The position numbers and the translations under genes were made by a program. The notes under the pieces were generated by a model that worked only from the letters and a program-made list of their open reading frames with translations, was not told the origin of the DNA and made no database searches. Of a DNA stretch of 64,000 bases, positions 8,303-58,064 are shown piece by piece (positions within the stretch are counted from its first letter, which is position 1; each line of letters begins with the position of its first letter). Source of the stretch: Candidatus Cryptobacteroides sp. (GTDB lineage: Bacteria > Bacteroidota > Bacteroidia > Bacteroidales > UBA932); the NCBI GenBank assembly GCA_045539115.1, contig JAZQES010000075.1:46015-110014 (forward strand), in the 5' to 3' direction.

Positions 8303-9535
8303 TTACTCTATGTTTAGCATGAATGCTTCAAATATTTCCTTATGTGCTCCCGAGAATACGATGTGGTGGTTGCCGACAGGATTCTTCAGGAAATATTCCG
8401 TACATGTCTCCTGAGGATTCTCCTTGAGTCTGAGGTTGATCTGCGTGCGGCAGAGGTCGTTTTCGTACTGGTTGGAAAGAAGGTCCGCTTCGGTACAGAA
8501 ACTTCTGCCCAGGTCGCCGGACACTTTGAATATGGTAGCGTCTCCGACAGGCATTTCGCCGTGAACGGCCACTCCTATGCCGGATTCGAAATGAGTGTTG
8601 AACGAGCGGCTGAGGACCATATTGAACGGAATCGTGCAATGGGCCAGAAGCAGTTCACCTGTCTGGGGATCGATGCGAGATGGGTTTGCCTGGAAACCGC
8701 ATCTGCCGGTAAGAGCCTGACCTATGGTCATTGTCAGCAGGGCAGGAACATCTCCCTCGCATCCTGACGGTATGCCTTCGGAATTGAGCATCGCCAATGC
8801 AAGACAGCCGGTGTTTCCTACGCTGTCGAGCAGGTCGAAACAGCGAAGGGTCAGGCCGGACAGGTTATATCTCGTTACGATATTCTTCAGGGCTACATAT
8901 ATCTTCAATGCTCCTTCTGCATATTTCCTGACGGCTTCGGAAGCATTCTCTTCAAGTTCCTTCCTGATTGCCCGGACCTCATGAGGATATGTGTCCAACT
9001 TGCCGGTTTCTTCAACCAGTTCCTGTATGTTTATGTCAAGAAGGTTGATTCCCAGTTTTTCCTTTACGGCCTTCTTGTCGGCATCGCTCGAAATAAGCCA
9101 GTCAGACGGCTCGCCGATGATGCCCAGGTTCTTGCCGTTCAGAGATTTTCTGGCCTCCGAGACCTTTGCAAGCACATTTATCCTTTCCGAAATATAGGAA
9201 ACGCTGCCGTGCAGGATCTCGCCCTTGCATCCCTGCTGGTTGAGGTACGAAATGATTTCAAGCGAAGCCGCAAGTGAATTGCTCTTGCCCGATGTCAGCA
9301 GCAGGATATTGCCGTCAAGTGTAGGAAAGATCTCTTTGAAGAGCCCTTCTGTTCCTCCGGTGCGGACGAATATGATGTCGAGGTCGCTTTCTCCATATCC
9401 GGAAAAGTCATTTCCCCTGAAATCAAATCTGATTCCAAGCGAATCTTCGATTTCACTGATGAATGCCCCTGAAACAGCATTTACTGCCGCTTCATCATGC
9501 AGGGGAGAGGTGAGGGTATATAAGGCTATGTTCAT
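8303..9535 (-). CDS. L-fucose/L-arabinose isomerase-like protein (410 aa, specificity unknown)
   Basis: Putative metal-ligand motifs RCFDL, GCEGDVPA, LAHCTIP and GNHHIV are ordered as in the AraA/FucI superfamily; no signal peptide. Confidence 0.7.
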   Translation of the reverse strand: MNIALYTLTSPLHDEAAVNAVSGAFISEIEDSLGIRFDFRGNDFSGYGESDLDIIFVRTGGTEGLFKEIFPTLDGNILLLTSGKSNSLAASLEIISYLNQQGCKGEILHGSVSYISERINVLAKVSEARKSLNGKNLGIIGEPSDWLISSDADKKAVKEKLGINLLDINIQELVEETGKLDTYPHEVRAIRKELEENASEAVRKYAEGALKIYVALKNIVTRYNLSGLTLRCFDLLDSVGNTGCLALAMLNSEGIPSGCEGDVPALLTMTIGQALTGRCGFQANPSRIDPQTGELLLAHCTIPFNMVLSRSFNTHFESGIGVAVHGEMPVGDATIFKVSGDLGRSFCTEADLLSNQYENDLCRTQINLRLKENPQETCTEYFLKNPVGNHHIVFSGAHKEIFEAFMLNIE

Positions 9536-9544
9536 AGGTCAAAG

Positions 9545-15369: not shown

Positions 15370-16815
15370 CTATTCTTCGATCTTCTTGTACTTAGGGACA
15401 AGAACCTTCATGATTGTCCATGCGATCAGATATGCAACAGCACATATGCAGAATACGATCATGTATCCGGCTTCCTTGCCTTCGAAACCGAGGAATGCGA
15501 ATGCAGAACCTGCGTTTTCACTGAATGTGAAAAGTGCTCCTGCACCCTTGTTGATCAGGAATGAACCGAGTCCTCCTGCCATACCTCCGATACCTGTGAT
15601 GGTGGCGATGGCTGATTTAGGGAACATGTCACCGATGGTAGAGAAGAGGTTTGCGGACCATGCCTGATGGCCGGCTCCGGCAAGGCCGATGATGATTGCA
15701 GGCCACCATGCGGACATCTGTCCCATAGGCTGTGCAAAGAGGGCGAAGAGAGGGAAGAATGCGAAAATGAGCATCGCCAGCATTCTTCCGCTGTAAGGAT
15801 GCATGCCCTTCTTCTCCACGAAGAACTTAGGAAGATAGCCTCCGAAGATGGAAATGACGGTCACGATGGCGTAGAGTGTGACGATTAGTGCCATTCCGGT
15901 GCCGGAAGAAGCCTTGTATCCGAACTGATCCTGGAAATATGCAGGTGCCCAGAACAGATAGAACCACCATACTCCGTCAGTGAAGAACTTTCCGACGATG
16001 AATGACCATGTCTGTCTGTATGTAAAGCATTTGAGGAAAGGAATCGAACTCTTTTCTTCAACGTCTGCGGCTGGCGCTTCGTCTTCATCCTGCTGGATAT
16101 AAGCGAGTTCCGCTTCATTCACATGCTTTGATTTCTGCGGCTTGTCGTACATGAACACCCAGAATCCCATCCAGATGAAACCGAGGGCACCGATGATCAC
16201 GAATGCCATTTCCCAGCCGAATGCAGCGGCAAGAGGCGGGATGGTGGCAGGGGCCACGAGTGCTCCTACGGATGCTCCGGCATTGAAGATCGATGTCGCG
16301 AATGCACGGTCTTTCTTTGGGAAATACTCGGCTGTGGTCTTGATCGCGGCAGGGAAGTTGCCCGCTTCACCGAGGGCGAGGATGCCTCGCGCGGCAAGGA
16401 AGAGCCATACGCTTACGGATGCGATTGCAAGGGCAGCGGACGAACCTGTCTCGACTGCCTTCATGGCTTCAAGCGACTCATATCCTTCGATATGCATTGT
16501 CGCCCATCCGCAGACAGCGTGGAGGCATGCTCCGAGCGACCATACTCCGATTGCCCAGAGATATCCCTTCTTTGTGCCCATCCAGTCCACGAACTTGCCT
16601 GCGAAAAGCATGCATGCAGCGTAGAAGAGTGAGAAGAATGCAGTTATGGTACCGTAGTCACTGTCAGTCCAGTGGAACTCCGGAGCGATGAATTCCTTCC
16701 ATGTAAGAGAAAGAACCTGGCGGTCCATATAGTTGACGGTAGTCGCTACGAAGAGCAGCACGACCATCCACCAGCGCCAGTTGGTCATCAGTTCAGTTGT
16801 GGTGTTTTTCTTCAT
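15370..16815 (-). CDS. exuT: MFS hexuronate transporter (ExuT-like)
   Basis: RWWMVVLLFVATTVNYMDRQVLS, EAGNFPAAIKTTAEYFPKKDRA, FFTDGVWWFYLFWAP and HQAWSANLF motifs; downstream of eda. Confidence 0.85.
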   Translation of the reverse strand: MKKNTTTELMTNWRWWMVVLLFVATTVNYMDRQVLSLTWKEFIAPEFHWTDSDYGTITAFFSLFYAACMLFAGKFVDWMGTKKGYLWAIGVWSLGACLHAVCGWATMHIEGYESLEAMKAVETGSSAALAIASVSVWLFLAARGILALGEAGNFPAAIKTTAEYFPKKDRAFATSIFNAGASVGALVAPATIPPLAAAFGWEMAFVIIGALGFIWMGFWVFMYDKPQKSKHVNEAELAYIQQDEDEAPAADVEEKSSIPFLKCFTYRQTWSFIVGKFFTDGVWWFYLFWAPAYFQDQFGYKASSGTGMALIVTLYAIVTVISIFGGYLPKFFVEKKGMHPYSGRMLAMLIFAFFPLFALFAQPMGQMSAWWPAIIIGLAGAGHQAWSANLFSTIGDMFPKSAIATITGIGGMAGGLGSFLINKGAGALFTFSENAGSAFAFLGFEGKEAGYMIVFCICAVAYLIAWTIMKVLVPKYKKIEE

Positions 16816-16816: not shown

Positions 16817-17482
16817 TTATCTGATTTCTTTGATTATTTCCAGAGCATTTCTGCAAAGTTCCGTCACCGTATTCCAGTCTTTTGCGGCTACTGCCTCCTT
16901 TGGGAAGAGGTTGCTTCCCATTCCTACGCATGTCACACCGGCCTTGAACCATCCTTCGAGATTCTCTCTTGTCGGCTTGACTCCTCCCGTAACCATTATC
17001 TGGCTCCAAGGCATAGGGGCTTTCAGGCCTTTGACGAATGCTGGTCCGAGGACATCGCCTGGGAAGACCTTGCAGAGGTCGCAGCCGAGTTCCTGGGCCT
17101 TTCCCACCTCCGACACTGTTCCGCAGCCTGGGCAGTATGGCACGAGGCGGCGGTTGCATATCGGCGCAATCTCAGGATTGAAGAGGGGACCTACGACGAA
17201 GTTTGCTCCCAATTGGAGATAAAGTGCCGCTGTCGGAGCATCTACTACCGAACCGATTCCGAGAATCAGGCCCGGAAGTTCGCTGTTGGCATATTTCACA
17301 AGTTCCCCGAACACCTCGTGTGCGAAATCGCCGCGGTTCGTGAATTCGAAGGCACGTACACCTCCGTCGTAGCAGGCCTTCAATACGGCTTTTGCCGTTT
17401 CAAGGTCGGAATGATAGAACACCGGAACCATGCCGGTATCCTTCATTGCTGATATTACCTGTAATTTGCTGTATTTTGCCAT
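16817..17482 (-). CDS. eda: KDPG/KHG aldolase
   Basis: [29 protein letters not shown] and MVTGGV motifs. Confidence 0.95.
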
Positions 17483-17520: not shown

Positions 17521-18561
17521 CTATCTTGATACGCGGCCGGAACCGTCGCCTTTCATGAGGTTTTCAACTTCCGCTACGGTCACCTGATTGTAGTCTCCGA
17601 AGATTGTGTGTTTCAGGCATGAAGCGGCAACCGCAAAGTTCAGAGCCTTCTGGTCGTCTCCGGTGTAGGTGAGGAGACCGTAAATGAGGCCGCCCATGAA
17701 TGAATCACCGCCGCCGACGCGGTCAACGATGTGCGTGATGTCGTAACGTGGTGACTGATAAAGTTTTCCGTCGCTGTAAAGAACGCCGCCCCATGTGTTG
17801 TGGTTGGCATTGATCGATCCTCTCAGAGTGATTATCACTTTCTTTGCACGTGGGAATCTGGTCATGAGTTGCTTGCACACGCTCTCGAATTCAGCGGCAT
17901 TGACTTCGCCGTGAGTCGCTGTGACGTCAAATCCTTCCGGCTTGATGCCGAACACCTTCTCCGCGTCTTCCTCGTTTCCGAGTATCACGTCGCATCCTGC
18001 AACGAGGTCCGGCATGACCTCTGAAGCGGTCTTTCCGTATTTCCAGAGATTCTTCCTGTAATTGAGGTCGCATGAAACTGTCACTCCGAGTCTGTTCGCC
18101 GCCTTTATGGCTTCAAGGCATACGTCAGCCGCTCCCTGGCTTATCGCAGGAGTGATGCCTGTCCAATGGAACCAGTCCGCTCCTTCGAATACCTTGTCCC
18201 AGTCGATCATGCCTTTCTCGATCTGTGCAATCGCTGAATTGGCCCTGTCGTACACCACCTTGCTCGGACGTGCTACCGCTCCGGTTTCAAGGAAATAGAT
18301 GCCGAGACGGTCTCCGCCGAAGATGCAGTGTCTTGTTCCTACTCCGTAACTGTGTAAGTCCTTGATGCAGGATGCTGCAATGTCGTTCTTAGGGAATCTT
18401 GTCACGAATTCAGTCTCGATGCCGTAGTTGGCAAGTGATACGGCTACATTTGCCTCGCCGCCGCCGAATGTGGCTTCAAACTGTCTGCTCTGTGAAAATC
18501 TGAGATAGCCAGGTGTAGAAAGCCTGAGCATGATCTCTCCAAATGTGATTACTCTTGGCAT
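17521..18561 (-). CDS. kdgK: 2-keto-3-deoxygluconate kinase (PfkB family)
   Basis: FGEIMLRL, GGGEANVA, FHWTGITPA, DLNYRKNLW and DRVGGGDSF motifs; adjacent to eda. Confidence 0.93.
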   Translation of the reverse strand: MPRVITFGEIMLRLSTPGYLRFSQSRQFEATFGGGEANVAVSLANYGIETEFVTRFPKNDIAASCIKDLHSYGVGTRHCIFGGDRLGIYFLETGAVARPSKVVYDRANSAIAQIEKGMIDWDKVFEGADWFHWTGITPAISQGAADVCLEAIKAANRLGVTVSCDLNYRKNLWKYGKTASEVMPDLVAGCDVILGNEEDAEKVFGIKPEGFDVTATHGEVNAAEFESVCKQLMTRFPRAKKVIITLRGSINANHNTWGGVLYSDGKLYQSPRYDITHIVDRVGGGDSFMGGLIYGLLTYTGDDQKALNFAVAASCLKHTIFGDYNQVTVAEVENLMKGDGSGRVSR

Positions 18562-18599: not shown

Positions 18600-18607
18600 C
18601 AAAAATA
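18600..18607 (-). promoter_or_regulatory. Putative -7 box (TATTTTTG) for kdgK
   Basis: CAAAAATA on the + strand, 39 nt upstream of the kdgK ATG. Confidence 0.55.
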
Positions 18608-18623
18608 TAAATATTTTCTTAAA

Positions 18624-18643
18624 TTCCGTGAACGGGCACGGAA
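18624..18643. promoter_or_regulatory. LacI-type palindromic operator TTCCGTGAAC|GGGCACGGAA
   Basis: TTCCGTG-N6-CACGGAA with a central CG, between the divergent kdgK and LacI genes; near-identical copy at 54656-54675. Confidence 0.8.
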
Positions 18644-18703
18644 AAATCAGTTTGAATAAAGGATTATTTTCCTCATATTTGTATATTCAAATAAACGTCA
18701 GGT

Positions 18704-19765
18704 ATGATCAAGGGTGGCAACAAGGTGACTATCAATGATGTGGCGAAGGCGGCCGGTGTTTCCAAAGGAACGGTCGACAGAGTTCTGCACAACAGGGGAG
18801 AAGTGTCCCGTAAGAGCAAGGAAAAGGTTCTCAAGGTGATTGAAGAACTCGGATTCAAGCCCAATCTCTATGCATCCTTGCTGGCTTCCCAGAAGGATCA
18901 TGTCATCGCATGTCTCATTCCTGAATATGCTCCCGGCGAATTCTGGTCCCTTGCGGAAAAAGGCATAACCGAAGGTGCGGGTCTTGTGGCAAGGTATGGC
19001 ATAAGGGTTCAAGTCATCAAATATGACCAGTATAGCGTGGAATCTTTCCGTAATGCGTGCTGCAAGGTGCTGGGAATCAGTCCTTCCGGAGTCATTCTTC
19101 CTCCGATGTTTGCCGATGAGACAGCCAGATTCGTATCTGAACTTTCAGAAAAGGATATCCCATATGTATATGTGGATTCGAAAATTGACGATGACAGATA
19201 TCTTGCATATTTCGGCATGCCGATGTATGAAAGCGGGCGTCTTTGTGCGTACATGCTTTCCGGAGGCCGTTCTGTGCCGGAGCATGTATATGCAGTGCGT
19301 ATCGCCAGAGACAAGGAGGGACTTTCCGATCCGACGGCGGCCAGAAGAAAAGGATTCTCAGACTTCATGTCCGAGAATTATCCTGACACGAAGGTCACCA
19401 ACGTATTCATCGATCCGAAGGATCCGGAGTCTATCATGGCACGACTCGATTCCACAATCGGTTCGGGCCAGGGAGAACGCTTTGTTGTCATGTTCAATTC
19501 CAGGATACACATCGTGGCAGATTATCTGGAAGAACGTAATATAGACGGATGTCGTGTAATCGGATTCGACTGTCTGGAAAAGAATCTCGAAGCATTGAAG
19601 AAAGGACATGTCGATGCCCTGATAGCCCAGCATACAGACATGCAGGCTGTAAATGCGGTCAACGTCCTGGCTGACTACATAATCCTCGGCACTCCGCCAG
19701 TACGTAAGGACAACTATACGCAGATGGATATCCTGAACATTTATAATTGCGACTATTATCTTTGA
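18704..19765 (+). CDS. LacI-family transcriptional regulator (KdgR-like by context)
   Basis: HTH VTINDVAKAAGVSKGTVDRVLHNRG plus a periplasmic-binding-protein-like effector domain; divergent from kdgK-eda. Confidence 0.92.
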   Translation: MIKGGNKVTINDVAKAAGVSKGTVDRVLHNRGEVSRKSKEKVLKVIEELGFKPNLYASLLASQKDHVIACLIPEYAPGEFWSLAEKGITEGAGLVARYGIRVQVIKYDQYSVESFRNACCKVLGISPSGVILPPMFADETARFVSELSEKDIPYVYVDSKIDDDRYLAYFGMPMYESGRLCAYMLSGGRSVPEHVYAVRIARDKEGLSDPTAARRKGFSDFMSENYPDTKVTNVFIDPKDPESIMARLDSTIGSGQGERFVVMFNSRIHIVADYLEERNIDGCRVIGFDCLEKNLEALKKGHVDALIAQHTDMQAVNAVNVLADYIILGTPPVRKDNYTQMDILNIYNCDYYL

Positions 19766-19767
19766 TT

Positions 19768-42669: not shown

Positions 42670-42708
42670 TAATTTATCACTGTTAAGCGATAAAAAATAC
42701 CCTAGGTC

Positions 42709-42755
42709 AAGCCTGTTATTGATTATATTTGCGATAATCACTAACAGGCTTTTCT
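42709..42755 (+). terminator. 18-bp near-perfect inverted repeat: probable ack-ptb-buk terminator overlapping the PUL promoter -7 box
   Basis: AAGCCTGTTATTGATTAT / ATTTGCG / ATAATCACTAACAGGCTT (17 of 18 paired), then TTCTT; TATATTTG at 42724-42731. Confidence 0.6.
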
Positions 42756-46095: not shown

Positions 46096-49000
46096 ATGAA
46101 GTCATCAGCGAAAGAAATACTGATAGCGGCCTTGGTCGTCTTGGCGGGAACGGTCTTCCATGAAATGAAGGCCGAGCCACTGGAGTTCATATATGAACAT
46201 TATTCATCTGACGACGGTCTGCCTCATAATTCCATATGTGACATCCATCAGGACAAAAGAGGCTACTTATGGCTGTGTACATGGTACGGTCTGAGCCGTT
46301 ATGACGGTAACACTTTCGTGAATTATACGATGAAGCCGGGTGATTATTCCAATCTTTCCCATAACAGGATCCTGTCTGTGGAGGAAGATATGGAAGGATA
46401 TCTCTGGGTAACTGCGTATGATTATCATCTTTATCGCTTTGACGTTGATAGTGAGGTGTTTGTCTCCATACCTGGCGATCTTGAAGGTCTTGAGCCGGTC
46501 AATGCCAAAGTGGATAACCTCCTTTGCTCTTCGAATGGCGATGTCTGGGCTTCATTCTCCGGCTTCGGACTGTTGAGGATATCTCCTGACCTTGAATACA
46601 CTTCATATTTCGGCGGGAGCGAGTCACTGGGCCGTGAAATCACATCCATCCATGAAGATTCGGAAGGCACAGTCTATGCGGTTTCCGAGACCGGGATAAC
46701 GATGTTCAGGGATGGACAGGTTTCTCTGCTGTCCCGAAATGACGAAGTCCTTTCGTTTGCGGAATTTGACGGCAAACTGTTTTTCGTTTCTCCGGATCAG
46801 ATGCTTGCTGTTGACATGGTGACAAGAGAGCAGAACAACATGGATCTCTCATCCCTCGGTCTTGGAAATGCTGCTGCAATGACCATTACAGGAGACCGCC
46901 TGTTTGTCGGCTTTCATGATGGGGCAGTCGCCTCTCTTGATGCCGTATCCATGAGACTGTCGCCGCATACGGCTGATATGGGACGTGTAAGGTATCTTTT
47001 CCCGGATCCGGAGGGCCTTCTGTGGATCGCTACGGAAAGGACCGGAATATGGTATTTTGATTCTGACAATGACCGGTTCAGGCATTTTGAACATCCGAAC
47101 AATGTGATGTCCTATTATGTGGATACCCTTGCCCGTGTGGAAACAAGAGGGGACAGGACATGGATCAAGATGAACAACTGGGGCTTCGGCTATTATGACA
47201 GGTGCTGTGATGACATCGTGCCCTTGAACAATGTCAAGGAACAGGAAGGCAGTCTTTTCATGAACGGAGTGGCATGCTTTGACATAGATGCTTCCGGAGT
47301 GCTCTGGATGTCGACTGTGGGCAGAGGTCTTGAAAGAGTGATGCTGATCGCACCCAAGGTGGATGTGCTTGATCCGCCGACCCGTTACGATGACCAGTTG
47401 TCTTCTTCCGAGGTGAGGGCGATGCTGAAGGATAGTAAAGGGCAGTTATGGGCCGCGACAAAGAGCCGGGAATTGTTCAGATACTCATCTGACCTTTCTT
47501 CATGCCGTCGTTTCCCTGATTCTGAAAGCGGTGACATCGGAGTCATTTATTCGATTTTTGAAGACTCTGACGGAAATATCTGGCTTGGAACAAAAGGTGA
47601 CGGACTCATCAGGATGACACCTGAAGGGAACGGATATTCCTGGAAGAGGTTCAGGAAGGATCTTGCCCGAAATAATGCATTGACTTCCAATAATATATAT
47701 TCTATCGAACAGGATAAGGACGGACGCATATGGATCGGTACGTATGGCGGCGGCATCGCCATGCTCACAGACCCGGACAGTGACGCTTTTGTCACGGTCA
47801 GGAATAATTTCCCCGATTATCCGCAGGAATTGGGAGACAGAGTGAGATACCTTCATTGCATGCCTGATGGACGTATGCTTGTGGCTACGGTAAGCGGACT
47901 GATCATGTTCGAGCCTTCCGACAGTCCGGAACTGACAACCTTCACAATGATTACAAAGATTCCGGGTGACCGTCATTCTCTTGGCAACAACGATGTCATC
48001 CACATGTTCACTGACAGTAAAGGATGCACGTGGCTGAGTACATTCGGAGGTGGACTGAACCGTCTGTATTTCGAGGGTGATCTTCCAAGATTCGAGATTA
48101 TCAGTACCGATGACGGTCTTGCAAGCAATATAGTTCATTCTGCGACAGAAGATCATGACGGTGTGATATGGCTTGCAACTGAATCCGGTCTCTCTTCTTA
48201 TGACCCTGAGTCGTCATCTGTGCGTAATTTCACTAAATATGATGGAATCAGTCCTACATCATTCAGTGAGGCGACATGCGCTTCGCTTGATGACGGCAGC
48301 GTAGTCTTCGGTACTACAGATGACATTTACAGGATATATCCTGAGAATTTTGAAAGTACCCGCAAAGACAGCCGTATAGTGATTTCCGGCTTGAATATAG
48401 ATGGTGTCAGGACTCCGTTCTCAGATCAGATAGTAATTCCTCATGACTGCTCCTTCTTCAGAATTGATTTCGCTTCCCTTGATTTCGGGGCCGGGGCAGA
48501 CAAGAACTTTTCATACATTCTTGAAGGTTATGACAAGAAATGGATCACCGATCCTGGAATCAACCGTGTCACATACTCACGCATCCCTCCGGGAAATTAT
48601 GTCTTCAAGGTCAGGGAGGCTGGTGCTGACGGATCTTCCGATGACAGTGTAGCCAGCATAAAGGTACGTGTCAAGCCGTCTGTATGGGCGACAGTACCTG
48701 CCCTGGTCATATATGTCCTTCTGGGACTCGGTCTGCTTGCTCTCCTGCTCAAGATAATCTCGACTTCGGTAAAATTACGTAACAATGTACGCGTCGAGAA
48801 GAGCCTCAATGAGATAAAGGGACGTTTCTTTACAAATGTCTCCCATGAACTTCGTACTCCGCTTACACTGATTCTTGGAGGCATCGATGAGATAAGCCGC
48901 AAGACTCCGGACGGAGATCCTGTAGAGTACAGTGTGAACATGGTTCAGAAGAATGCCAGAAGAATGCTCACGCTTGTGAACCAACTGCTTGATACTCGTT

Positions 49001-50409
49001 CTATCGCTGACGGAAAGATGCGTCTGAAAGTCAGCAACTTCGATGTTGTCAGACTCGTGCAGAACGTGTATGATGATTTCAGGGATATGTCTGTCGAGAG
49101 ACAGATGGAACTTCGTATCATCAAGTCGGTTGATATGCTGATGGTATGGGGAGACGCCATGAGGCTTGAGGCTCTTGTATATAATCTTCTTTCCAATGCG
49201 TTCAAGTATACATCCGACGGTGGAAAGATTGAAGTCGGTGTGCTTTACCGTGAAGGAGAACAGGATTTCCGTATCATGGTGAAGGACAATGGCATAGGGG
49301 TTCCGAAGCAGAATGTTAAGAGGATTTTCGAGCCGTTTACAAAAGGTGATGTGTCTGCTTTCCGTGGTATGGCAAGCAGCGGTATCGGCCTGTCGTTCTG
49401 CAAGGAGATCACTGACATGCATGGCGGTGAGATATGGGTTGAGAGCGGTTCTGAGACCGGCTCGAAATTCTTTGTAAGGCTTCCTGTAGGCAAGGAAAGA
49501 TTCAGTGAGGATACCGTTCAGTTCATCGGAAATGAGGCTGAGTCTGCCGCTGCCGGTCAGTATGGCCTTGGAAGATACAAGAGGGAGGTGGAACATCCTG
49601 ATGGGGCCCTGAAGGTACTTGTCGCTGAGGATAATGCCGAATTGAAGGTGTTCATATATAACAGCCTTGTCGACAAATATGATGTAAGGGATGCTTCCAA
49701 CGGAAAGGAAGCCTTGGATATCATTTCTTCCGGATGGATGCCTGACCTGATCGTCACGGACCTCATGATGCCGGAAATGGATGGAATAGAACTTGTGAAC
49801 CATATCCGCAATGACTTTGATACCAGTCATATACCAGTTGTGGTCATAACAGCAAAACATGAAGATGACACTCATCTGAAAGCGATGAAATATGGCGCTG
49901 ACGGTTATATATCGAAGCCGTTCAGTATGGAACTTCTTCTTGCGAGAATCGAGAATATGCTTGAGAGAAGGAAGACGCTTATCTCCAAGTTGTCCCGGCA
50001 GTATCATGTGGAGGAACATAAGGACAGGAAGGTCAGGAAGATAGAGATTTCGCCGGAAGAGATTGTCATTACGGACAAGGATGAGCAGTTGATCAAAAAG
50101 GTCATGACATGGCTTGAAGAGAATGTTGCCGATGCGGAGGTCACTGTCGAGCAACTTGCCACATATCTCGGAATGGGACGTACTTCCATGTACAACAAGA
50201 TCAAGGGTCTTACCGGAAAGTCTCCGGTGGAACTGATTCAGGAGTTCCGTCTGGAGAAGGCCAAGTACTATCTCAGGAGCGGGCAGTATTCTGTATCAGA
50301 GACTTCCTACAAGGTCGGATTCTCTGATCCGGGCTATTTCAGCAGGAGTTTCAAGAAGCATTTCGGAATATCTCCTGCTGATTATATCAAACGGAATTCC
50401 ACAAAATGA
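46096..50409 (+). CDS. Hybrid two-component system (propeller sensor, HisKA, HATPase, REC, AraC HTH)
   Basis: Reg_prop/YYY repeats, TM segment, FTNVSHELRTPLT, NLLSNAFKY, DNGIG, GIGL, DLMMPEMDG and KVGFSDPGYFSRSFKK. Confidence 0.97.
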   Translation: MKSSAKEILIAALVVLAGTVFHEMKAEPLEFIYEHYSSDDGLPHNSICDIHQDKRGYLWLCTWYGLSRYDGNTFVNYTMKPGDYSNLSHNRILSVEEDMEGYLWVTAYDYHLYRFDVDSEVFVSIPGDLEGLEPVNAKVDNLLCSSNGDVWASFSGFGLLRISPDLEYTSYFGGSESLGREITSIHEDSEGTVYAVSETGITMFRDGQVSLLSRNDEVLSFAEFDGKLFFVSPDQMLAVDMVTREQNNMDLSSLGLGNAAAMTITGDRLFVGFHDGAVASLDAVSMRLSPHTADMGRVRYLFPDPEGLLWIATERTGIWYFDSDNDRFRHFEHPNNVMSYYVDTLARVETRGDRTWIKMNNWGFGYYDRCCDDIVPLNNVKEQEGSLFMNGVACFDIDASGVLWMSTVGRGLERVMLIAPKVDVLDPPTRYDDQLSSSEVRAMLKDSKGQLWAATKSRELFRYSSDLSSCRRFPDSESGDIGVIYSIFEDSDGNIWLGTKGDGLIRMTPEGNGYSWKRFRKDLARNNALTSNNIYSIEQDKDGRIWIGTYGGGIAMLTDPDSDAFVTVRNNFPDYPQELGDRVRYLHCMPDGRMLVATVSGLIMFEPSDSPELTTFTMITKIPGDRHSLGNNDVIHMFTDSKGCTWLSTFGGGLNRLYFEGDLPRFEIISTDDGLASNIVHSATEDHDGVIWLATESGLSSYDPESSSVRNFTKYDGISPTSFSEATCASLDDGSVVFGTTDDIYRIYPENFESTRKDSRIVISGLNIDGVRTPFSDQIVIPHDCSFFRIDFASLDFGAGADKNFSYILEGYDKKWITDPGINRVTYSRIPPGNYVFKVREAGADGSSDDSVASIKVRVKPSVWATVPALVIYVLLGLGLLALLLKIISTSVKLRNNVRVEKSLNEIKGRFFTNVSHELRTPLTLILGGIDEISRKTPDGDPVEYSVNMVQKNARRMLTLVNQLLDTRSIADGKMRLKVSNFDVVRLVQNVYDDFRDMSVERQMELRIIKSVDMLMVWGDAMRLEALVYNLLSNAFKYTSDGGKIEVGVLYREGEQDFRIMVKDNGIGVPKQNVKRIFEPFTKGDVSAFRGMASSGIGLSFCKEITDMHGGEIWVESGSETGSKFFVRLPVGKERFSEDTVQFIGNEAESAAAGQYGLGRYKREVEHPDGALKVLVAEDNAELKVFIYNSLVDKYDVRDASNGKEALDIISSGWMPDLIVTDLMMPEMDGIELVNHIRNDFDTSHIPVVVITAKHEDDTHLKAMKYGADGYISKPFSMELLLARIENMLERRKTLISKLSRQYHVEEHKDRKVRKIEISPEEIVITDKDEQLIKKVMTWLEENVADAEVTVEQLATYLGMGRTSMYNKIKGLTGKSPVELIQEFRLEKAKYYLRSGQYSVSETSYKVGFSDPGYFSRSFKKHFGISPADYIKRNSTK

Positions 50410-50425: not shown

Positions 50426-52786
50426 ATGAATAAAAGACTTTACATGCTTCTGGCTGCGGTTCTGTTTACTTTTGCAGCGATGGCCCAGCCTCCATATTCC
50501 GTATGGATGATTCAGTCGGAGATGAAGAGGAATCCCGATGCTACATATCTGGACGGTAGAAATGGAGAAAGAAAATGGAACTATACTACAGGTCTTGAAC
50601 TCAAGTCTTTCCTTGATGCGGCCAAGAGATATGAACTTCCTGAGGCTGTGGATTATGTGCGTGCCTGGGCTGATACTATGGCTACGGAAAAGGGCGTTGT
50701 CTATAAATACAAGAAGTCCAACTACAATGTGGACCATATATGCCCTGCACGCATATATTTCGACCTTCATGACATGTATGGCGATCAGGACAAGAGGTAT
50801 CGCCGCGTGACCAGGATGATACGCGAACAGATTGATGATCAGCCTCGTACGAAGTCAGGAGAGTTCTGGCACAAGCAGATATATCCTCATCAGGTGTGGC
50901 TCGACGGATTTTACATGGCCCTGCCGTTCTATGCGGAATATACGAAGAGATATGCTCCGAAGGAGCAGAGGGATTCACTTTTCGCAGATATCGTGCATCA
51001 GTTCACTGCTGGTGCTGAGAATACATTCGATCCTGCGACCGGACTTTTCCGTCATGCATGGGACGAATCGCGCTCAATGTTCTGGTGTGACCCTGAGACC
51101 GGACTCTCTGAGCATGCATGGGGACGTGCTACGGGCTGGTATGCCGTCGCTCTGGTAGAGGTCCTGGATTATCTTCCCAAGAACCATCCCGGCAGAAATG
51201 AACTGATCTCACAGTTGAACTATTTCCTTGAAGTGCTTCCCAAGTGGGCTGACAAGGAGACAGGAATGTGGTATCAGGTGCTTGACTGTCCCGACCGTGA
51301 AGGCAATTATCAGGAGGCGACATGCTCGATAATGTTCATCTATGCCTTCCTAAAAGGCTTGAGGATGGAATATATAGATGACTCTCATAGGGACTATATC
51401 CTTGGCCTGTATCCTAAGTTCATCAAACGCTTCACCCGCTTCAACGATGATGGAACCATCTCTATGACTGACTGCTGTTCTGTCGGCGGCCTTGGCGGAA
51501 AGCAGATGAGAAAGGGTGATTTCGCCTACTATCTCAGCGAACCTGTGATTGAAAACGACTGCAAGGGCGTGGGTCCTTTCATCTGGGCGTCACTCGAGTG
51601 GGAAGCCATGCATAACATCGAATATTTTCCGTATGAGGAGCGTCCGGTGGCCTTCGAAGGAGCGGAGGGCTGCGGAAAACATGCCATAGGAGGCCGTGGG
51701 GGCAGGGAATATGTGGTCACATCACTTGCTGATGACGGTTCGGAAGGTACATTGCGTCATGCTGTCGAAGCGGAAGGCCCTCGTATAGTCACATTTGCAG
51801 TAAGCGGTGACATATGTCTCGAATCTCCGCTGAATGTGACGAATCCTTATATATCCATATTGGGAGAAACAGCACCTGGCAAGGGAATAACCATCCGTGA
51901 CCATAATATGTTCATTGAGGCCGATCATACAATCGTCAGATATATCAGGTTCCGTCTCGGATCCAAGGCTGCAGTAGAGGCGGACGCTTTGGGGGCGAAG
52001 AGATGCAGCAACATCATCATCGACCACTGCTCGATCAGTTGGGCGGTCGATGAAAATGCCTCCTTTTATAATATAAATGACGCTACGGTGCAGTGGTGCA
52101 TCATTTCGGAGGCTCTGAATGCATCTGTACACCATAAGGGACAGCATGGCTATGGCGGAATATGGGGAGGCAGGAACGTGACTTTCCACCATAATCTCTT
52201 TGCCCATAACAACAGCCGCAATCCACGTTTCGACCATCCGCGCATATACAGCGGTGCCGAACTTCTGACCGGCAGGGGAACGGTGGATTTTGTGAACAAC
52301 GTCGTCTATAACTGGGGCATGAAGGCAATCTACGGCGGTGAAGAGGGCTGGTTCAATGTGGAAGGCAATTATTTCCGTCCCGGTCCTGCAACAAGACATC
52401 TTGACGGAGAGTGGCTGGATATCAGCACTTCCGAGACTACATCCATGATTCCTGGCAAATTCTACATCGAAGATAATTTCTATGATGTCTCTGCTGTCGC
52501 AAAAGGCGGGTTTGAGGGTGAAATGCCTGATACGGAGAAGATCGAATGGTGGGAAGACAGATATGAAGATGTGTCTGTGAGTACACCTTTTGCTATAAAG
52601 GTCCCATATAATCATCAGGAGGCTTCAAAGGCATATAAGGAGGTTCTTGAATGTGCCGGAGCGTCGAAGAAACGTGATGCCGTGGACAAGCGTATTGTGA
52701 AAGAAGTCAGGAAAGGTACTGCGTCCTGCAAAGGCTCTGTCACCGGCCTTCCCGGAATCATCGATTCTGAAAATGATGTGAGATGA
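50426..52786 (+). CDS. Fusion of GH105 unsaturated (rhamno)galacturonyl hydrolase and PL1 pectate lyase
   Basis: N-terminal about 400 aa: WNYTTG, NVDHI, HQVWLDGFYM, HAWDE, WGRATGW and KGVGPFI. C-terminal: AFEGAEG.G..A.GGRGG, IIDHCSISW, HGYGGIWGG, HHNL and RNPRF. Confidence 0.92.
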   Translation: MNKRLYMLLAAVLFTFAAMAQPPYSVWMIQSEMKRNPDATYLDGRNGERKWNYTTGLELKSFLDAAKRYELPEAVDYVRAWADTMATEKGVVYKYKKSNYNVDHICPARIYFDLHDMYGDQDKRYRRVTRMIREQIDDQPRTKSGEFWHKQIYPHQVWLDGFYMALPFYAEYTKRYAPKEQRDSLFADIVHQFTAGAENTFDPATGLFRHAWDESRSMFWCDPETGLSEHAWGRATGWYAVALVEVLDYLPKNHPGRNELISQLNYFLEVLPKWADKETGMWYQVLDCPDREGNYQEATCSIMFIYAFLKGLRMEYIDDSHRDYILGLYPKFIKRFTRFNDDGTISMTDCCSVGGLGGKQMRKGDFAYYLSEPVIENDCKGVGPFIWASLEWEAMHNIEYFPYEERPVAFEGAEGCGKHAIGGRGGREYVVTSLADDGSEGTLRHAVEAEGPRIVTFAVSGDICLESPLNVTNPYISILGETAPGKGITIRDHNMFIEADHTIVRYIRFRLGSKAAVEADALGAKRCSNIIIDHCSISWAVDENASFYNINDATVQWCIISEALNASVHHKGQHGYGGIWGGRNVTFHHNLFAHNNSRNPRFDHPRIYSGAELLTGRGTVDFVNNVVYNWGMKAIYGGEEGWFNVEGNYFRPGPATRHLDGEWLDISTSETTSMIPGKFYIEDNFYDVSAVAKGGFEGEMPDTEKIEWWEDRYEDVSVSTPFAIKVPYNHQEASKAYKEVLECAGASKKRDAVDKRIVKEVRKGTASCKGSVTGLPGIIDSENDVR

Positions 52787-52815
52787 AGAGCATCCTGAAC
52801 GCTAAATCAAAGAAT

Positions 52816-54663
52816 ATGAAACTGAACAGAATACTTGCGTTATCGCTTCTGATCTTATTTGCCGCATGTCATCCTGACGATGTGATTGCACCTGTTGACG
52901 TGACTGTGCCAGAGGGTGTGTCTCTTGACTCATATGATTCCGCTTCCCTTACATTTGTCTGGGATGAGGTCTCGGGAGCGGATTATTATGTAGGACGTCT
53001 GGAAAAGGTCAACGGTGAACTTGTTTCCGGCGGTCAGACCACTACAAAGACAAATTCCCTTACATATAAAGGTCTGGAAGCGGATACGGAGTACATGTTC
53101 AAGGTGAAGGCAAAGGCCGGCAGTCTGGAATCTCCTTATTCTGAAGCGGTTTCGGCTAGGACTGCTGCCGGTCAGGAACCGGGACCGGGCCAGGATCCGG
53201 GCCAGTATGCCGATTATGATTCGTTCAAGATTCCTTCTTATGAAGATGAACATGGCAAGACTCTGGCATTCCCTGGCGCTGAAGGCGGCGGAATGTATGT
53301 GACAGGAGGCCGTGGAGGCAAGGTGATACATGTGACGAATCTGAATGATTCGGGAGCAGGCTCCCTTCGCGCTGCGCTTGCCCAATCAGGGCCAAGGATC
53401 ATTGTCTTTGATGTAGCCGGTGTGATAGAACTCAAATCGACCCTCGGCATCAAGTCCGGTGATGTTACGATTGCAGGTCAGACTGCTCCGGGAGACGGAA
53501 TATGTCTGAAAAACTATGCTACGCAACTCTCTGCGAGCAATGTCATCATCCGTTTCGTCCGTTTCCGTATGGGTGACGAGGCCAAGCAGGAAAATGATGC
53601 GATTTGGGGACGTTACAATGAAAATGTCATCCTTGACCATTGCTCAATGTCCTGGTCGACGGACGAATGTGCTTCGTTTTATGCGAACAGCAATTTCACC
53701 ATGCAGTGGTGCATACTGACGGAGAGCCTGCGTAATTCCGTGCACGGCAAGGGAAAGCACGGATATGGAGGCATATGGGGCGGAAAGGATGCATCCTTCC
53801 ATCATAATCTCCTCTCCGACCACGACAGCAGGAATCCTCGTATCGATCATCCGCAGATATATGGTGATTATGTCTCCACTCATCGAGGAAATGTCGATTA
53901 CAGGAACAATGCCGTATTTAACTGGGGCTCCAATTCCACTTATGGCGGCGAGGACGGCTGGTTCAATATCGTCAATAATTATTATAAGCCGGGTCCTGCT
54001 TCGAAGAATGTGAATTATTTCGTTGATGCGTACGGCTCATATGTCAAGGACGGTACCGTATATGCCGACAGTTATCCGGAACTTTATATGTCCGGAAATG
54101 TCCATACAGGCAACGCGGACATTACGGCAGCCAATGATGCAAGCGCCATCTACTGGCATAACGGAGATTCCTATGGCAATTACAATACCTTGGTCACATC
54201 TCCACATTCGATCAAGGGACCGTCACAGGAAGATGTCTATACGACCACTCATTCTGCTGAAGATGCATTTGCTCTGATCTGCGAGGTGGCCGGTGCTTCG
54301 CTTTCACGTGATTCAGTTGATGAACGTGCATGTTCGGACGCAAAGAACGGCAAGGTGACTTTTGCTGACGGCGGCAACGGTTCGAAGAACGGAATCATCG
54401 ACACCCAGGGTGCTGTCGGCGGATGGCCTTCATATGAGGCTTCGGACGATGAAAGGGAGGCGGTAAAGGATTCTGATTCCGACGGTATGCCTGACTGGTT
54501 CGAAGAACAGTTCGGTCTGGACAAGTCTGACGCTTCTGACGGCAACTCGAAAACTCTTGACCGATACTCGAGATACACCAATCTGGAAATGTATCTCCAT
54601 TATCTTGTCCGTGACATAGTCAGCAGACAGAACTCTGGCGGCACATATCAAAAAATGTCGTGA
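52816..54663 (+). CDS. PL1 pectate lyase lipoprotein with N-terminal FN3 domain
   Basis: Start MKLNRIL (52816), lipobox FAAC, FN3 domain, PG-rich linker, AFPGAEGGG, LDHCSMSW, RNPR and a C-terminal DSDSDGMPDWFE Ca-binding-like tail. Confidence 0.93.
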   Translation: MKLNRILALSLLILFAACHPDDVIAPVDVTVPEGVSLDSYDSASLTFVWDEVSGADYYVGRLEKVNGELVSGGQTTTKTNSLTYKGLEADTEYMFKVKAKAGSLESPYSEAVSARTAAGQEPGPGQDPGQYADYDSFKIPSYEDEHGKTLAFPGAEGGGMYVTGGRGGKVIHVTNLNDSGAGSLRAALAQSGPRIIVFDVAGVIELKSTLGIKSGDVTIAGQTAPGDGICLKNYATQLSASNVIIRFVRFRMGDEAKQENDAIWGRYNENVILDHCSMSWSTDECASFYANSNFTMQWCILTESLRNSVHGKGKHGYGGIWGGKDASFHHNLLSDHDSRNPRIDHPQIYGDYVSTHRGNVDYRNNAVFNWGSNSTYGGEDGWFNIVNNYYKPGPASKNVNYFVDAYGSYVKDGTVYADSYPELYMSGNVHTGNADITAANDASAIYWHNGDSYGNYNTLVTSPHSIKGPSQEDVYTTTHSAEDAFALICEVAGASLSRDSVDERACSDAKNGKVTFADGGNGSKNGIIDTQGAVGGWPSYEASDDEREAVKDSDSDGMPDWFEEQFGLDKSDASDGNSKTLDRYSRYTNLEMYLHYLVRDIVSRQNSGGTYQKMS

Positions 54664-54675
54664 ACGGGCACGGAA
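54656..54675. promoter_or_regulatory. Second copy of the LacI-type operator, upstream of susC
   Basis: TGTCGTGAACGGGCACGGAA matches 18624-18643 at 18 of 20 positions and overlaps the PL1 stop codon. Confidence 0.75.
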
Positions 54676-54842
54676 ATTCATCCCGTTGTCAAAAAATACA
54701 AATAATGCGATAAAATTTACCTATTGTCTAGCAGGATAATAGGTATTTTCGCATTATGATAATTGTCCCCTGGCGTGTCTGGGGAGTTGAAAAGGCAAAA
54801 TCATAAACAATAACACCAAATACTAACCAAACAAATTCTTTT

Positions 54843-57800
54843 ATGAAAAATCTGACATACAAGATTTCTCTGCTGATCTTGGGGCTTTTCGCTGCAGGCC
54901 TTGCCGCGAATGCTCAACAGATCAAAGGTGTCGTGTCAGACGTCAATGGAGATCCGCTGATAGGCGTATCCGTTTTCGTGGACGGCACAACGTTAGGAGT
55001 TTCGACAGGAGTTGATGGTTCTTATGCCATAGACATTCCTGATGCCAAAGGAAAGACTCTGATCTTTTCGATGATCGGACTCGCTGAAAAGAGAGTCACG
55101 ATAGGCAATGCAGTTGTCATTGATGTCGTGCTTGAAGAAGATGCGAACTTCCTTGACGAGACTGTGGTCATCGGTTATGCGACAGTGAAACGTCGTGACC
55201 TGATGGGTTCCGTTTCATCGGTTGACAACAAGTCTCTCACACAGGTTCCGGTCGCTTCAGTCACTGAGGCCCTCTCCGGAAGAATGGCCGGTGTCCAGGT
55301 CACTGCAACCGAAGGTGATCCTGATGCTGAAATCAAGATCCGTGTCAGAGGTGGCGGTTCCATCACGCAGGACTCATCTCCTCTCTATATCGTTGACGGC
55401 TTCCCTGTGGAAAGCATATCTGACATCCCTGCATCGGACATCCAGTCTATCGATGTCCTCAAGGATGCCTTCTCGACAGCGATCTACGGTTCACGCGGTG
55501 CGAATGGTGTGGTTCTCGTGACAACCAAGTCAGGCGCTGCTGGCAAGATATCGGTAAGTTATAACGTGTATTATGGCCAGAAGAAGATGGCCAACAAGGA
55601 TGCCATCCAGGTGATGTCTCCTGAGGAGTTTGTGAAACTCCAGTGGGAACTCGGCGTCCTCAACGGCGATCTCGATGACGAGTATATCCCTGCTTACGGT
55701 GCTTGGGAAGATATGGACCAGTATGCAGGCATGCAGGCGAATGACTGGGTGCAGCAGGTATTCGGACGTACAGGAACTACCTTCAATCATAACCTTTCGG
55801 TTTCAGGAAGTTCCGACAAGGTGAAATGGACTGCAAGTTACGCCCACATCGGTGACAACGCCATCATGCTCGGTTCGGACTATAAGAGAGATAACCTCAA
55901 CTTCAAGACCCAGTACAAGCCGATCAAGCAGTTGACATTCGACATCAACGCAAGATATTCACGTACAGTTGTAATGGGAGCAGGTTCGAACTCTATCAAT
56001 GACTCGGGTTCGACATCAGGTACATCTGCGCGTCTGAAACATGCCGTACAGTATACTCCGATCCCTGTTACAGGAGCAACTTCTGATTCCGACCTCGCAG
56101 AGGACTATGGCGACAATGCTCCGCCTCTCCAGTCAGTGGCAGATAATGACCGCAGAAGAATCCGTGAAAACTGGACACTCAACGGTGCTGTGACATGGCA
56201 TATCATCAAGAACCTCAACCTCAAGGTTGAAGGCGGTCTTGACAACTATTCACAGGAAGACAACCGTTTCTACGGTCTTACCACATACTATGTAGGAAAT
56301 ACTGCGACAATCAAGAACCAGCCTGCAAACCTTTACAGCAACAATTTCAGGAACAAGTATCGCAATACCAACACATTGAGTTACAACTTCTCCGAGGTGT
56401 TCGCAAATGACAGCCATAAACTTGACATTCTCCTCGGACAGGAGTTCATCCTCACCAAGTCAAACACTCTTTCATCAACAGTCGAGGGATTCCCTACATT
56501 CTTTGACTCTCAGATGGCTTGGAACTTCATGGCTTCCGGTACTGCAGTCGCTTCAAACAACTATTTCAATGCCGATGACAAACTGCTGTCATTCTTCGGC
56601 CGTGTGAACTACGACTATGATTCGAGATACTCGATTTCTGCTACAGTACGTGCCGACGGTTCGTCAAAGTTCGCGGCAGGCAACCAGTGGGGTATCTTCC
56701 CTTCAGCAGCAGCGTCATGGACAATCTCCAACGAGCCTTGGATGGAAAATGCTTCTTCATGGCTAGACAACCTCAAACTCCGTTACAGTTACGGTACAGC
56801 AGGTAACAACAACATCCCTACCGGAGTGTCATCAATGACATTCTCGGCAAATGCCACAACATGGCTTTCAAACACAGACACATACTGGACTACTACAAAG
56901 GTCGGCGGAAAGACCATCATGCCTAATCCTGACCTTACATGGGAGACTACAATTTCTCATAACCTCGGTCTCGACCTCTCTCTCTTCCAGGGTCGTGTGA
57001 ACGCTACGTTCGAACTTTATCACAATACCACAAAGGACCTCCTCATCCAGTTCCCAACTGCCGGTTCGGGATATGACTATCAGTATCAGAACATCGGTTC
57101 GACTCAGAACCGCGGTTTCGAGGCTTCGCTCAACTTCGTACTCCTTGAAAAGAAGAATTTCGGCCTCACTCTCGGAGCGAACATCAGTTTGAACGAGAAC
57201 AAGGTTGTCAGCCTCGGTGGTCTTGACAGGATCGATTCAGAGTCTATGTGGGCTTCGACTGAAATCGGACCGGATTACGTTGTCCTTCCTGGACAGCCTC
57301 TCGGCCAGATGTACGGATATGAAGTTGAAGGACGTTATGCAGCAAGCGACTTCACATATGACGGAAAGAAATGGGTAGCGAATGAAGGAGTGGTAGATGC
57401 TTCTACACTTGTCGGATCGAACTATTTCGGCCCAGGTTCCGTAAAACTCAAGGATCAGAACGGTGACGGCAAGATTGACGCTACCGACAAGACAGTGATC
57501 GGTAACGCACTTCCTCTCGGAACAGGAGGTTTCAACCTTTCAGGTTATCTTTACGGATTTGACTTCTCTGCAAACTTCAACTATGTGTTCGGAAACGACA
57601 TCTACAACGCAAACAAGATAGAGTTCTCACATTCAAGAAAATACAAGAAACGTAATCTTCTCAGTTCTATGTCAGTTGATCAGAGATGGACAAACGTGGA
57701 CTGGGCGACAGGTGAGCAGATCACAGACCCTGCTGTTCTCGATGAACTCAATGCAGGCACTACAATGTGGTCTCCAGCATGCCAGAATGCGATCTTTACA

Positions 57801-58064
57801 GACTGGGCTGTGGAGGACGGTTCATTCCTCCGTCTGACATCTGCGACAATCGGTTACACTCTTCCGCAGAAGTGGACCATGAAGATCAAGATGCAGAAAC
57901 TCCGTTTCTATGTGACAGGAACCAACCTCTTCTGTCTTACAAATTATTCCGGTTACGATCCTGAGGTCGACACACGTCGAAGCACACCTCTTACACCGGG
58001 TGTCGACTATGCAGCATATCCAAAGAGCATAGGTTGGGACGTAGGTGCTAACATTACCTTCTAA
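54843..58064 (+). CDS. SusC/RagA TonB-dependent transporter
   Basis: CarbopepD_reg-like N-terminus, LDETVVIGY, IRVRGGGS, PLYIVDG, DVLKDAFSTAIYGSRGANGVVLVTTK, LKLRYSYG, LTWETT, VEDGSFLRL and a C-terminal F. Confidence 0.98.
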   Translation: MKNLTYKISLLILGLFAAGLAANAQQIKGVVSDVNGDPLIGVSVFVDGTTLGVSTGVDGSYAIDIPDAKGKTLIFSMIGLAEKRVTIGNAVVIDVVLEEDANFLDETVVIGYATVKRRDLMGSVSSVDNKSLTQVPVASVTEALSGRMAGVQVTATEGDPDAEIKIRVRGGGSITQDSSPLYIVDGFPVESISDIPASDIQSIDVLKDAFSTAIYGSRGANGVVLVTTKSGAAGKISVSYNVYYGQKKMANKDAIQVMSPEEFVKLQWELGVLNGDLDDEYIPAYGAWEDMDQYAGMQANDWVQQVFGRTGTTFNHNLSVSGSSDKVKWTASYAHIGDNAIMLGSDYKRDNLNFKTQYKPIKQLTFDINARYSRTVVMGAGSNSINDSGSTSGTSARLKHAVQYTPIPVTGATSDSDLAEDYGDNAPPLQSVADNDRRRIRENWTLNGAVTWHIIKNLNLKVEGGLDNYSQEDNRFYGLTTYYVGNTATIKNQPANLYSNNFRNKYRNTNTLSYNFSEVFANDSHKLDILLGQEFILTKSNTLSSTVEGFPTFFDSQMAWNFMASGTAVASNNYFNADDKLLSFFGRVNYDYDSRYSISATVRADGSSKFAAGNQWGIFPSAAASWTISNEPWMENASSWLDNLKLRYSYGTAGNNNIPTGVSSMTFSANATTWLSNTDTYWTTTKVGGKTIMPNPDLTWETTISHNLGLDLSLFQGRVNATFELYHNTTKDLLIQFPTAGSGYDYQYQNIGSTQNRGFEASLNFVLLEKKNFGLTLGANISLNENKVVSLGGLDRIDSESMWASTEIGPDYVVLPGQPLGQMYGYEVEGRYAASDFTYDGKKWVANEGVVDASTLVGSNYFGPGSVKLKDQNGDGKIDATDKTVIGNALPLGTGGFNLSGYLYGFDFSANFNYVFGNDIYNANKIEFSHSRKYKKRNLLSSMSVDQRWTNVDWATGEQITDPAVLDELNAGTTMWSPACQNAIFTDWAVEDGSFLRLTSATIGYTLPQKWTMKIKMQKLRFYVTGTNLFCLTNYSGYDPEVDTRRSTPLTPGVDYAAYPKSIGWDVGANITF

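Follow-up and report, generated by a model that had tools for sequence, protein, structure and literature searches.

A putative LacI-type uronate operator shared by a kdgK/regulator promoter region and a pectin susC junction in a Candidatus Cryptobacteroides species

Why does the same 18-nt sequence stand at two places 36 kb apart in the DNA of a Candidatus Cryptobacteroides species, once between kdgK and a gene for a LacI-family regulator, and once ahead of the susC gene of a pectin PUL? In the window, by which we mean the whole 64,000-nt stretch analysed here, CGTGAACGGGCACGGAAA occurs exactly at 18627-18644 (site 1) and 54659-54676 (site 2), both on the + strand. The initial annotation had reported this identity correctly, and there is no third match in the window at up to three mismatches (0.04 expected). 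When the alignment of the two sites is extended to 24 nt, 22 of the 24 positions match (AAATTCCGTGAACGGGCACGGAAA vs AAATGTCGTGAACGGGCACGGAAA). The repeat by itself is only mildly unusual; an exact 18-mer repeat in 64 kb has an estimated expectation of about 0.06, and further chance repeats of 15-17 nt are present elsewhere in the window. A weight matrix trained on other species is the decisive test. The answer that we consider likely, from sequence comparison, is that both sites serve as operators for the LacI-family protein whose gene lies at 18704-19765, and that at site 2 this protein would antagonise the HTCS of the PUL and/or block read-through, resulting in two-signal control.

Site 1 lies in the 142-bp gap between kdgK (- strand) and the LacI gene (+ strand), among the following features:

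15370..16815, - strand: MFS transporter, hexuronate/galactonate-transporter-like, last gene of the operon (Pfam MFS_1)
16817..17482, - strand: kdgA/eda, KDPG aldolase (Pfam PF01081)
17521..18561, - strand: kdgK, 2-keto-3-deoxygluconate (KDG) kinase, first gene of the kdgK-kdgA-MFS operon (Pfam PfkB)
18600..18607, - strand: predicted kdgK -7 box TATTTTTG, a perfect TAnnTTTG, found by hand
18623..18644, no strand: operator 1 ATTCCGTGAACGGGCACGGAAA, a CG-centred palindrome common to the divergent kdgK and LacI promoters
18651..18681, + strand: predicted LacI promoter, TTTG (18651-18654), 19 nt, cATATTTG (18674-18681)
18704..19765, + strand: LacI-family regulator, HTH_LacI plus periplasmic-binding-protein fold (PF00356, residues 9-54; PF13407, residues 71-326)

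Bacteroidetes promoters follow the consensus TAnnTTTG (-7) / TTTG (-33), and these elements were searched for by hand, as a sigma-70 promoter scan is unsuited to Bacteroidetes. The core of site 1 is a palindrome at 18624-18643, TTCCGTG-AACGGG-CACGGAA, with perfect 7-nt arms and its central CG at 18633-18634; the halves TTCCGTGAAC and GGGCACGGAA are paired at 8 of 10 positions. This is the palindrome proposed earlier (TTCCGTG-N6-CACGGAA with a central CG), and it has the form of a LacI/GalR-type inverted repeat, which spans about 14-20 bp around a central CG step. Operator 1 is 15 nt upstream of the kdgK -7 box (18607-18600), over the expected -33 position, which agrees with its original placement in the -33 region of kdgK between divergent genes. 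At its other end it stops 6 nt upstream of the LacI -33 element. With the promoters as predicted, the geometry is that of classical repression and autoregulation: a bound dimer would cover the -33 region of the kdgK-kdgA-transporter operon and abut the -33 element of the regulator's own promoter, and repression would be lifted by a cytoplasmic uronate-pathway intermediate.

A cognate LacI-family protein is encoded close to site 1, as expected of a LacI/GalR operator. Its closest solved structure is 3gbv, a putative LacI-family regulator, its relatives in the PDB are LacI-family regulators, and NCBIfam holds no equivalog for it. We treat ORF 18704-19765 as the putative hexuronate/KDG regulator for both operators; a second LacI paralogue of the same specificity may lie outside the visible 64 kb. 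Among the neighbouring products, KdgK has NCBIfam matches of the KDG-kinase type below the curated cut-offs, and the MFS transporter has a match to the TIGR00893 subfamily, again below cut-off; the orthologue of the transporter in locus L071 has an operator upstream. When orthologous regulators are compared, the DNA-binding domain is 79-100% conserved and the effector domain 58-70%. The conserved DNA-binding domain and hinge (residues A57 S58 L59 L60 A61) fit the conserved half-sites, the CG centre and the conserved operator described below.

The regulator is 61-72% identical to its orthologues in L001 and L044, with the divergence concentrated in the effector domain, which could mean that effector specificity is changing. 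Horizontal transfer of the PUL had been considered on account of the difference between SusC (89% identity) and LacI, and was rejected: in those genomes the neighbouring KdgK, DnaJ and MFS transporter show 88-95% identity. The LacI gene is thus simply fast-evolving, and no transfer is needed. The 3' end of the LacI gene is overlapped by a gene for a GlpT/UhpT-like organophosphate:phosphate antiporter (19747-21159), and co-transcription of the two is probable. In relatives (L122, L123), what follows the regulator is this antiporter gene, a glycerophosphodiester phosphodiesterase-metallophosphatase gene, or both, which is a strange pairing for a regulator of uronate genes.

Orthologous regulator loci were fetched from 80 species; the regulator's relatives belong to uncultured Bacteroidales, for the most part under the label Candidatus Cryptobacteroides. 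A CGT-N8-ACG palindrome is found no more than 260 bp upstream of the regulator orthologue in 75 of these species, compared with about 0.07 expected per locus. The exceptions include L071 and L072, in which the regulator is the last gene of its operon and the site precedes the whole operon. The consensus operator is TTTCCGTG-nn-CG-(G/T)(T/G)(A/C)-ACGGAAA, and its central CG is the same in all 75 orthologous sites that were collected, whereas flanks and spacer bases vary. Persistence of the motif upstream of orthologous regulators while the flanks have diverged is the footprint of autoregulation.

A 22-nt position weight matrix (PWM) was built from 50 distinct sites, leaving out the window and its 97%-identical relative; the CGT and ACG positions of the matrix were fixed beforehand by the regular expression used in site collection. 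The matrix gives 32.4 bits for site 1 and 27.6 bits for site 2, which compares with 22.0-35.1 for the training sites and a top score of 17.3 bits among 100 shuffled windows. The chance expectation for site 2 (bound 2^-S) is about 6e-4 per window, and its left-arm variant, TTGTCGTG, is also found at bona fide autoregulatory sites in nine species. Judged by its sequence, site 1 is a genuine operator of the LacI family.

In 1.3 Mb of related DNA, PWM matches of at least 17 bits are almost only regulator-proximal sites, plus about a dozen others. The additional sites lie in the divergent promoter region of uxaC and uxaB-uxaA, upstream of kduD-EIIC-kduI and upstream of an MFS transporter-regulator operon, which are functionally coherent sugar-catabolic genes of the kind expected for a LacI operator. 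Because the regulator-proximal, uxaC/uxaB-uxaA, kduD-kduI and transporter sites make up nearly all matches, the motif is, at the level of prediction, the mark of one coherent galacturonate/KDG regulon with autoregulation. The regulator itself appears to be the sole hexuronate/KDG regulator in the Candidatus Cryptobacteroides-like lineage. As comparative predictions, operator identity, conservation and regulon content are well established, and the earlier suggestion that the motif is the operator of the adjacent LacI regulator holds, given its presence upstream of the orthologue in most species and its recurrence at hexuronate-catabolism promoters. A dispersed repeat (REP- or MITE-like), which the initial annotation had named as a possible refutation, was rejected: there are two copies in the window, and in the 1.3 Mb of related loci the motif is found at regulon promoters only.

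At the start of the window (38-12391) there is a partial uxuA (mannonate dehydratase), followed by a xylose cluster (xylulokinase, a xylose isomerase-like gene and a sugar transporter), GH31 and GH115. There is no LacI-operator match near these genes, and the glucuronate and xylan genes therefore seem to be outside the regulon here. Between the two loci, a long imperfect inverted repeat at 33901-34028 (42-nt arms, 86% complementary, 44 nt apart) sits between a LolA-like gene and a convergent TPM-domain gene. Immediately upstream of the pectin PUL (39336-42669) are genes for acetate kinase and phosphate butyryl/acetyl-transferase, and a butyrate-kinase-like gene.

The pectin PUL itself runs in the order GH28, CE8/GDSL esterase, HTCS, GH88 and beta-helix protein, lyase, SusC, SusD and large lipoprotein. 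The features that matter here are:

42687..42731, + strand: GH28 promoter, element GCGATAAAAAATACC-N22-TATATTTG; no LacI operator in the PWM scan
46096..50409, + strand: HTCS of the pectin PUL (Pfam Reg_prop, Y_Y_Y, HisKA, HATPase_c, Response_reg, HTH_18)
52783..54663, + strand: fn3 and pectate-lyase-like protein, 626 aa (Pfam fn3; NCBIfam PelZ-like match below cut-off)
54655..54676, no strand: operator 2 ATGTCGTGAACGGGCACGGAAA, from its PWM score and conservation in relatives
54687..54721, + strand: conserved block 1 TGTCAAAAAATACAAATAATGCGATAAAATTTACC, kept in all 11 long-spacer junctions
54744..54751, + strand: predicted susC -7 box TATTTTCG, a conserved block (transcription start predicted near 54757)
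54843..58064, + strand: susC-like TonB-dependent transporter (Pfam Plug, TonB_dep_Rec, CarboxypepD_reg)
58071..59906, + strand: susD-like binding protein (Pfam SusD_RagB)
59924..64000, + strand: large surface lipoprotein running beyond the window end (orthologues with fn3, DUF4957, DUF5123)

The lipoprotein gene 3' of susD has internal repeats of about 1 kb at 62861-63996 (period 1002 nt, with a 29-nt exact match), consistent with repeated DUF4957/DUF5123 modules.

At site 2 the left arm is imperfect (TGTCGTG). Its left half is formed by the final codons of the 626-aa lyase ORF together with the TGA stop (54661-54663), and its right half is non-coding; the ATG of susC (54843) is 167-188 nt downstream. 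Both sites had been described as lying in regulatory positions; site 2 is upstream of susC but not wholly intergenic, as it overlaps a stop codon. An AACGGG...CCCGTT inverted repeat adjoins site 2 in the window and is not kept in relatives. From site 2 to the susC -7 box downstream is a distance of about 67 nt, and block 1 comes directly after the site. Since site 2 is clear of the core promoter, simple promoter occlusion cannot be its mode of action, and with the site on a stop codon at this distance, position does not give the sign and mechanism of its action at susC. Anti-activation of the HTCS or a roadblock is more likely.

Block 1 is a candidate HTCS-binding element and probably the PUL-specific promoter element that depends on the HTCS, because GCGATAAAAnnTACC-N22-TAnnTTYG is common to the block 1 region and the GH28 promoter (42687-42731), where there is no LacI site; the HTCS at 46096..50409 is the presumed activator of both the susC and GH28 promoters. 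Written out more fully, 42687-42731 and 54707-54751 both carry GCGATAAAA(A/T)(A/T)TACC-N22-TA(T)(A/T)TT(T/C)G, a candidate HTCS-dependent signature, and block 1 upstream of susC also holds a direct repeat, AAAAAATAC...AAAATTTAC, with 21-nt spacing. Metatranscriptome contigs covering this region are too sparse for transcripts to be delimited: one contig spans 54572-54847, as either read-through RNA or contaminating DNA, and three runs cover susC and hardly 54387-54820.

About 30 orthologous PUL lyase-susC junctions were collected. There are two types of junction (54664-54842 in the window; loci L086-L121), one with a spacer of about 180 nt and a conserved internal promoter and one of about 45 nt without it, in which susC presumably shares a transcript with the genes upstream of it. 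Junction type can differ between close relatives (SusC 82-87% identical). The spacers of about 180 nt carry two conserved blocks, TGTYAAAAARTACAAATAATGCGATAAAATTTACC and a -7-like box, TA(T/A)TTTCG. Site 2 is kept on the stop codon in L086, L118, L120, L101, L111 and L102 (27.8-30.3 bits) and weakened in L087 and L119 (21.0 bits), making eight orthologous pectin PULs in all. Site 2 is missing from L121, L088/L089/L107, L106, L093, L116 and L109, even though SusC of L121 is 85% identical. Conservation in relatives, which the initial annotation had asked to have checked, is broad for site 1 but limited to one sub-lineage for site 2, which on this distribution is a lineage-specific addition to the regulon. 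Absence from many orthologous PULs and degradation in L087 and L119 also mean that site 2 is dispensable.

Where it is present, site 2 is well preserved. Identity was computed over six aligned operator-bearing sequences and is 0.89 for the operator (22 nt) and 0.90 for its non-coding right half, against 0.29 for the 11 nt past the operator and 0.58 for the upstream coding sequence; block 1 and the -7 block reach 0.89 and 0.91. CACGG and block 1 are 13 nt apart in all sequences that have the operator. As an alignment pattern, conservation at the susC junction is a clear phylogenetic footprint, which marks site 2 as a selectively maintained copy of the predicted operator, although coding constraint on the left half makes part of the conservation, by this reckoning, non-regulatory. 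Pairing of LacI and PUL loci was tried for the best operator-bearing MAGs, and the sole pair is JAFURF01, which holds both the regulator with its operator (L044) and a PUL copy of the site (L119).

A third PWM match in the window, ATTCCGTGCACGGCAAGGGAAA at 53735-53756 (21.8 bits), was considered as an auxiliary or looping operator and is probably due to chance. Placed inside the lyase ORF and 920 nt ahead of site 2, it codes for N-S-V-H-G-K-G in a lyase-domain repeat paralogous to 52089-52248, and its right core is AGGG, not ACGG. Its counterpart falls below 10-12 bits in operator-bearing relatives, and weak versions occur in PULs without site 2. A weak auxiliary operator is the less likely alternative.

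Some LacI-family proteins (CcpA, Cra) activate from comparable upstream positions, and lacO3 is an upstream auxiliary operator. The same regulator could hence act positively at site 2, recruiting or stabilising the activator or RNA polymerase, or site 2 could be an auxiliary site for DNA looping, as its distance of about 67 nt from the downstream -7 box and its strict 13-nt spacing from block 1 would allow. We hold this to be rather improbable: at all other targets the operator overlaps or abuts the promoter in a repressor-like manner, there is no PWM match of at least 8 bits between 54677 and 61190 that could serve as a partner, and the only nearby match, at 53735-53756, is coding and unconserved in operator-bearing relatives. 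Less probable still is that site 2 arose by chance or is decaying and plays no part in regulation, being kept only by recent descent and by the coding constraint of the lyase. Such an origin would explain why many orthologous PULs are without the site and why two have a weakened one, and the left half does code for Leu-Ser-stop, with operator-less relatives still ending in K-I/L-S-stop. But neither descent nor coding accounts for the non-coding right half, AACGGGCACGGAAA, which is 90% identical in six lineages next to 11 nt of 29% identity, for the fixed distance from site 2 to the promoter element, or for a match of 27.6 bits that chance would so seldom produce.

A protein-independent role for the shared sequence, as a terminator, mRNA-stabilising hairpin or REP/MITE-like repeat, is suggested by its being palindromic and, at site 2, at the 3' end of an ORF. 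This is very improbable, and a terminator or RNA hairpin at site 2 was rejected. There are zero terminator-like sites at site 2, RNA folding there gives z-scores from -0.24 to +0.99, and four orthologues have no common structure. Moreover, the loop bases are conserved and do not covary, site 1 is away from any 3' end, and in 1.3-1.6 Mb of related DNA the motif is confined to the promoter regions of hexuronate genes and susC.

This leaves antagonism of the HTCS and/or a read-through block by the regulator as the preferred reading. We infer that the regulator binds both sites, that it represses rather than activates, and that its effector is KDG or an earlier intermediate of the uronate pathway. 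One sub-lineage would have gained a second operator at the end of the lyase gene, with the left half built from the Leu-Ser-stop codons, and with 13 nt between this operator and the downstream promoter element of susC-susD-lipoprotein, which is PUL-specific and presumably depends on the HTCS. From that position the bound regulator would most likely hinder activation by the HTCS (anti-activation), stop read-through out of the GH28-CE8-HTCS-GH88-PL operon as a roadblock, or do both. The uptake operon would then be fully expressed only when a periplasmic oligogalacturonide signal and a cytoplasmic product signal are both present. The initial annotation had the LacI protein gating the SusCD operon; what survives is that the PUL carries a true copy of the operator, as its footprint indicates, but "gates" and "repressor" are inferential terms for a site that is off the susC promoter. 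A stricter version, to which we give tentative and rather less than even credence, is that site 2 evolved recently for anti-activation or as a roadblock and keeps a fixed helical phase (13 nt) relative to the HTCS element, forming an AND gate of periplasmic oligosaccharide and cytoplasmic KDG/uronate. If this were true, a LacI-family repressor would antagonise an HTCS directly or halt read-through from the HTCS operon, and the junction would be a snapshot of monosaccharide regulons capturing PULs.

LacI-family proteins are known to act in such ways in other bacteria. CytR works by anti-activation, and LacI, CcpA and PurR can form roadblocks, in E. coli and B. subtilis. The likeness, a LacI-family dimer by an activator site or inside a transcription unit, is a mechanistic analogy only.

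The logic of control by two signals has a precedent in Bacteroides. In B. thetaiotaomicron, the arabinan PUL is dually controlled by AraR (BT0354) and the HTCS BT0366 (Schwalm 2016, PMC5061871; Chang 2015, PMC4666351). Dual control of PULs by an HTCS and a monosaccharide regulator had been predicted in 2013 (Ravcheev 2013, PMC3878776), and was proposed as general with the arabinan work (PMC3878776, PMC4666351, PMC5061871). The pectin PUL resembles this system in having its own HTCS together with susC/susD, and in having a conserved predicted site for a cytoplasmic monosaccharide regulator upstream of susC. As with AraR, the susC/susD operon carries a site for a monosaccharide-catabolism regulator beside its own periplasm-sensing HTCS, and the same regulator runs monosaccharide genes elsewhere on the chromosome. 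The two systems differ in the regulator, which is of the LacI family here and NrtR/Nudix-type in the case of AraR, and in the sugar, galacturonate/KDG as opposed to arabinose. They also differ in the position of the operator, which here is upstream of an activator-type element and on a stop codon, and in the material, as the present case comes from the sequences of uncultured Cryptobacteroides-like MAGs whereas AraR was studied in cultured Bacteroides by EMSA and genetics.

For the regulon itself, the nearest comparison is with the predicted Bacteroides LacI-family regulons KdgR (BT0487), UxaR (BT0824) and UxuR (BT1434) (Ravcheev 2013, PMC3878776; Ravcheev 2014, PMC4052901). Compared by regulon content only, the likeness is in an autoregulated LacI gene beside kdgK-kdgA, and in targets that comprise kdgK/kdgA, kduI/kduD, a hexuronate transporter and uxaA/uxaB/uxaC. 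In B. thetaiotaomicron the targets are split over three paralogous regulators, whereas here one motif spans kdgK, uxaCBA, kduDI (in relatives) and susC. The published B. thetaiotaomicron KdgR regulon has no susC target, and the nearest target, BT4105-4107, merely adjoins a homogalacturonan PUL (PMC3878776, PMC4052901). Marine Flavobacteriia provide a further parallel: the alginate PUL of Zobellia has the repressor AusR (GntR) (PMC7641319), and Gramella forsetii PULs contain LacI genes (PMC4069401). In these PULs, too, a cytoplasmic one-component repressor tied to uronate/KDG catabolism controls or accompanies SusC/D-type genes, but they are without an HTCS and have the repressor inside the PUL, in contrast to a regulator encoded 36 kb away from an HTCS-controlled PUL. 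No account of a pectin susC with a KdgR-type site came up in a literature search. The pectin and LacI case therefore appears to be undescribed, while the dual-control logic itself is established.

Sequence nearly identical to that of the window (about 80% of sampled words; runs X1-X24) is present in many sheep, bovine and other gut or faecal metagenomes. This wide occurrence makes the organism a common ruminant-gut resident, and gut metatranscriptomes contain its susC.

The general picture of PUL regulation is unchanged by these results. The operator model, TTTCCGTG-nn-CG-nnn-ACGGAAA, can be used for annotating hexuronate regulons in Cryptobacteroides MAGs, and closely related PULs that differ in having or lacking the operator, or the internal susC promoter, are natural variants open to direct comparison. 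The logic by which a PUL combines a polysaccharide signal with a monosaccharide signal, known for AraR and arabinan in cultured Bacteroides, would be extended to a LacI-type uronate regulator and pectin in a genus that is abundant in the ruminant gut but uncultured.
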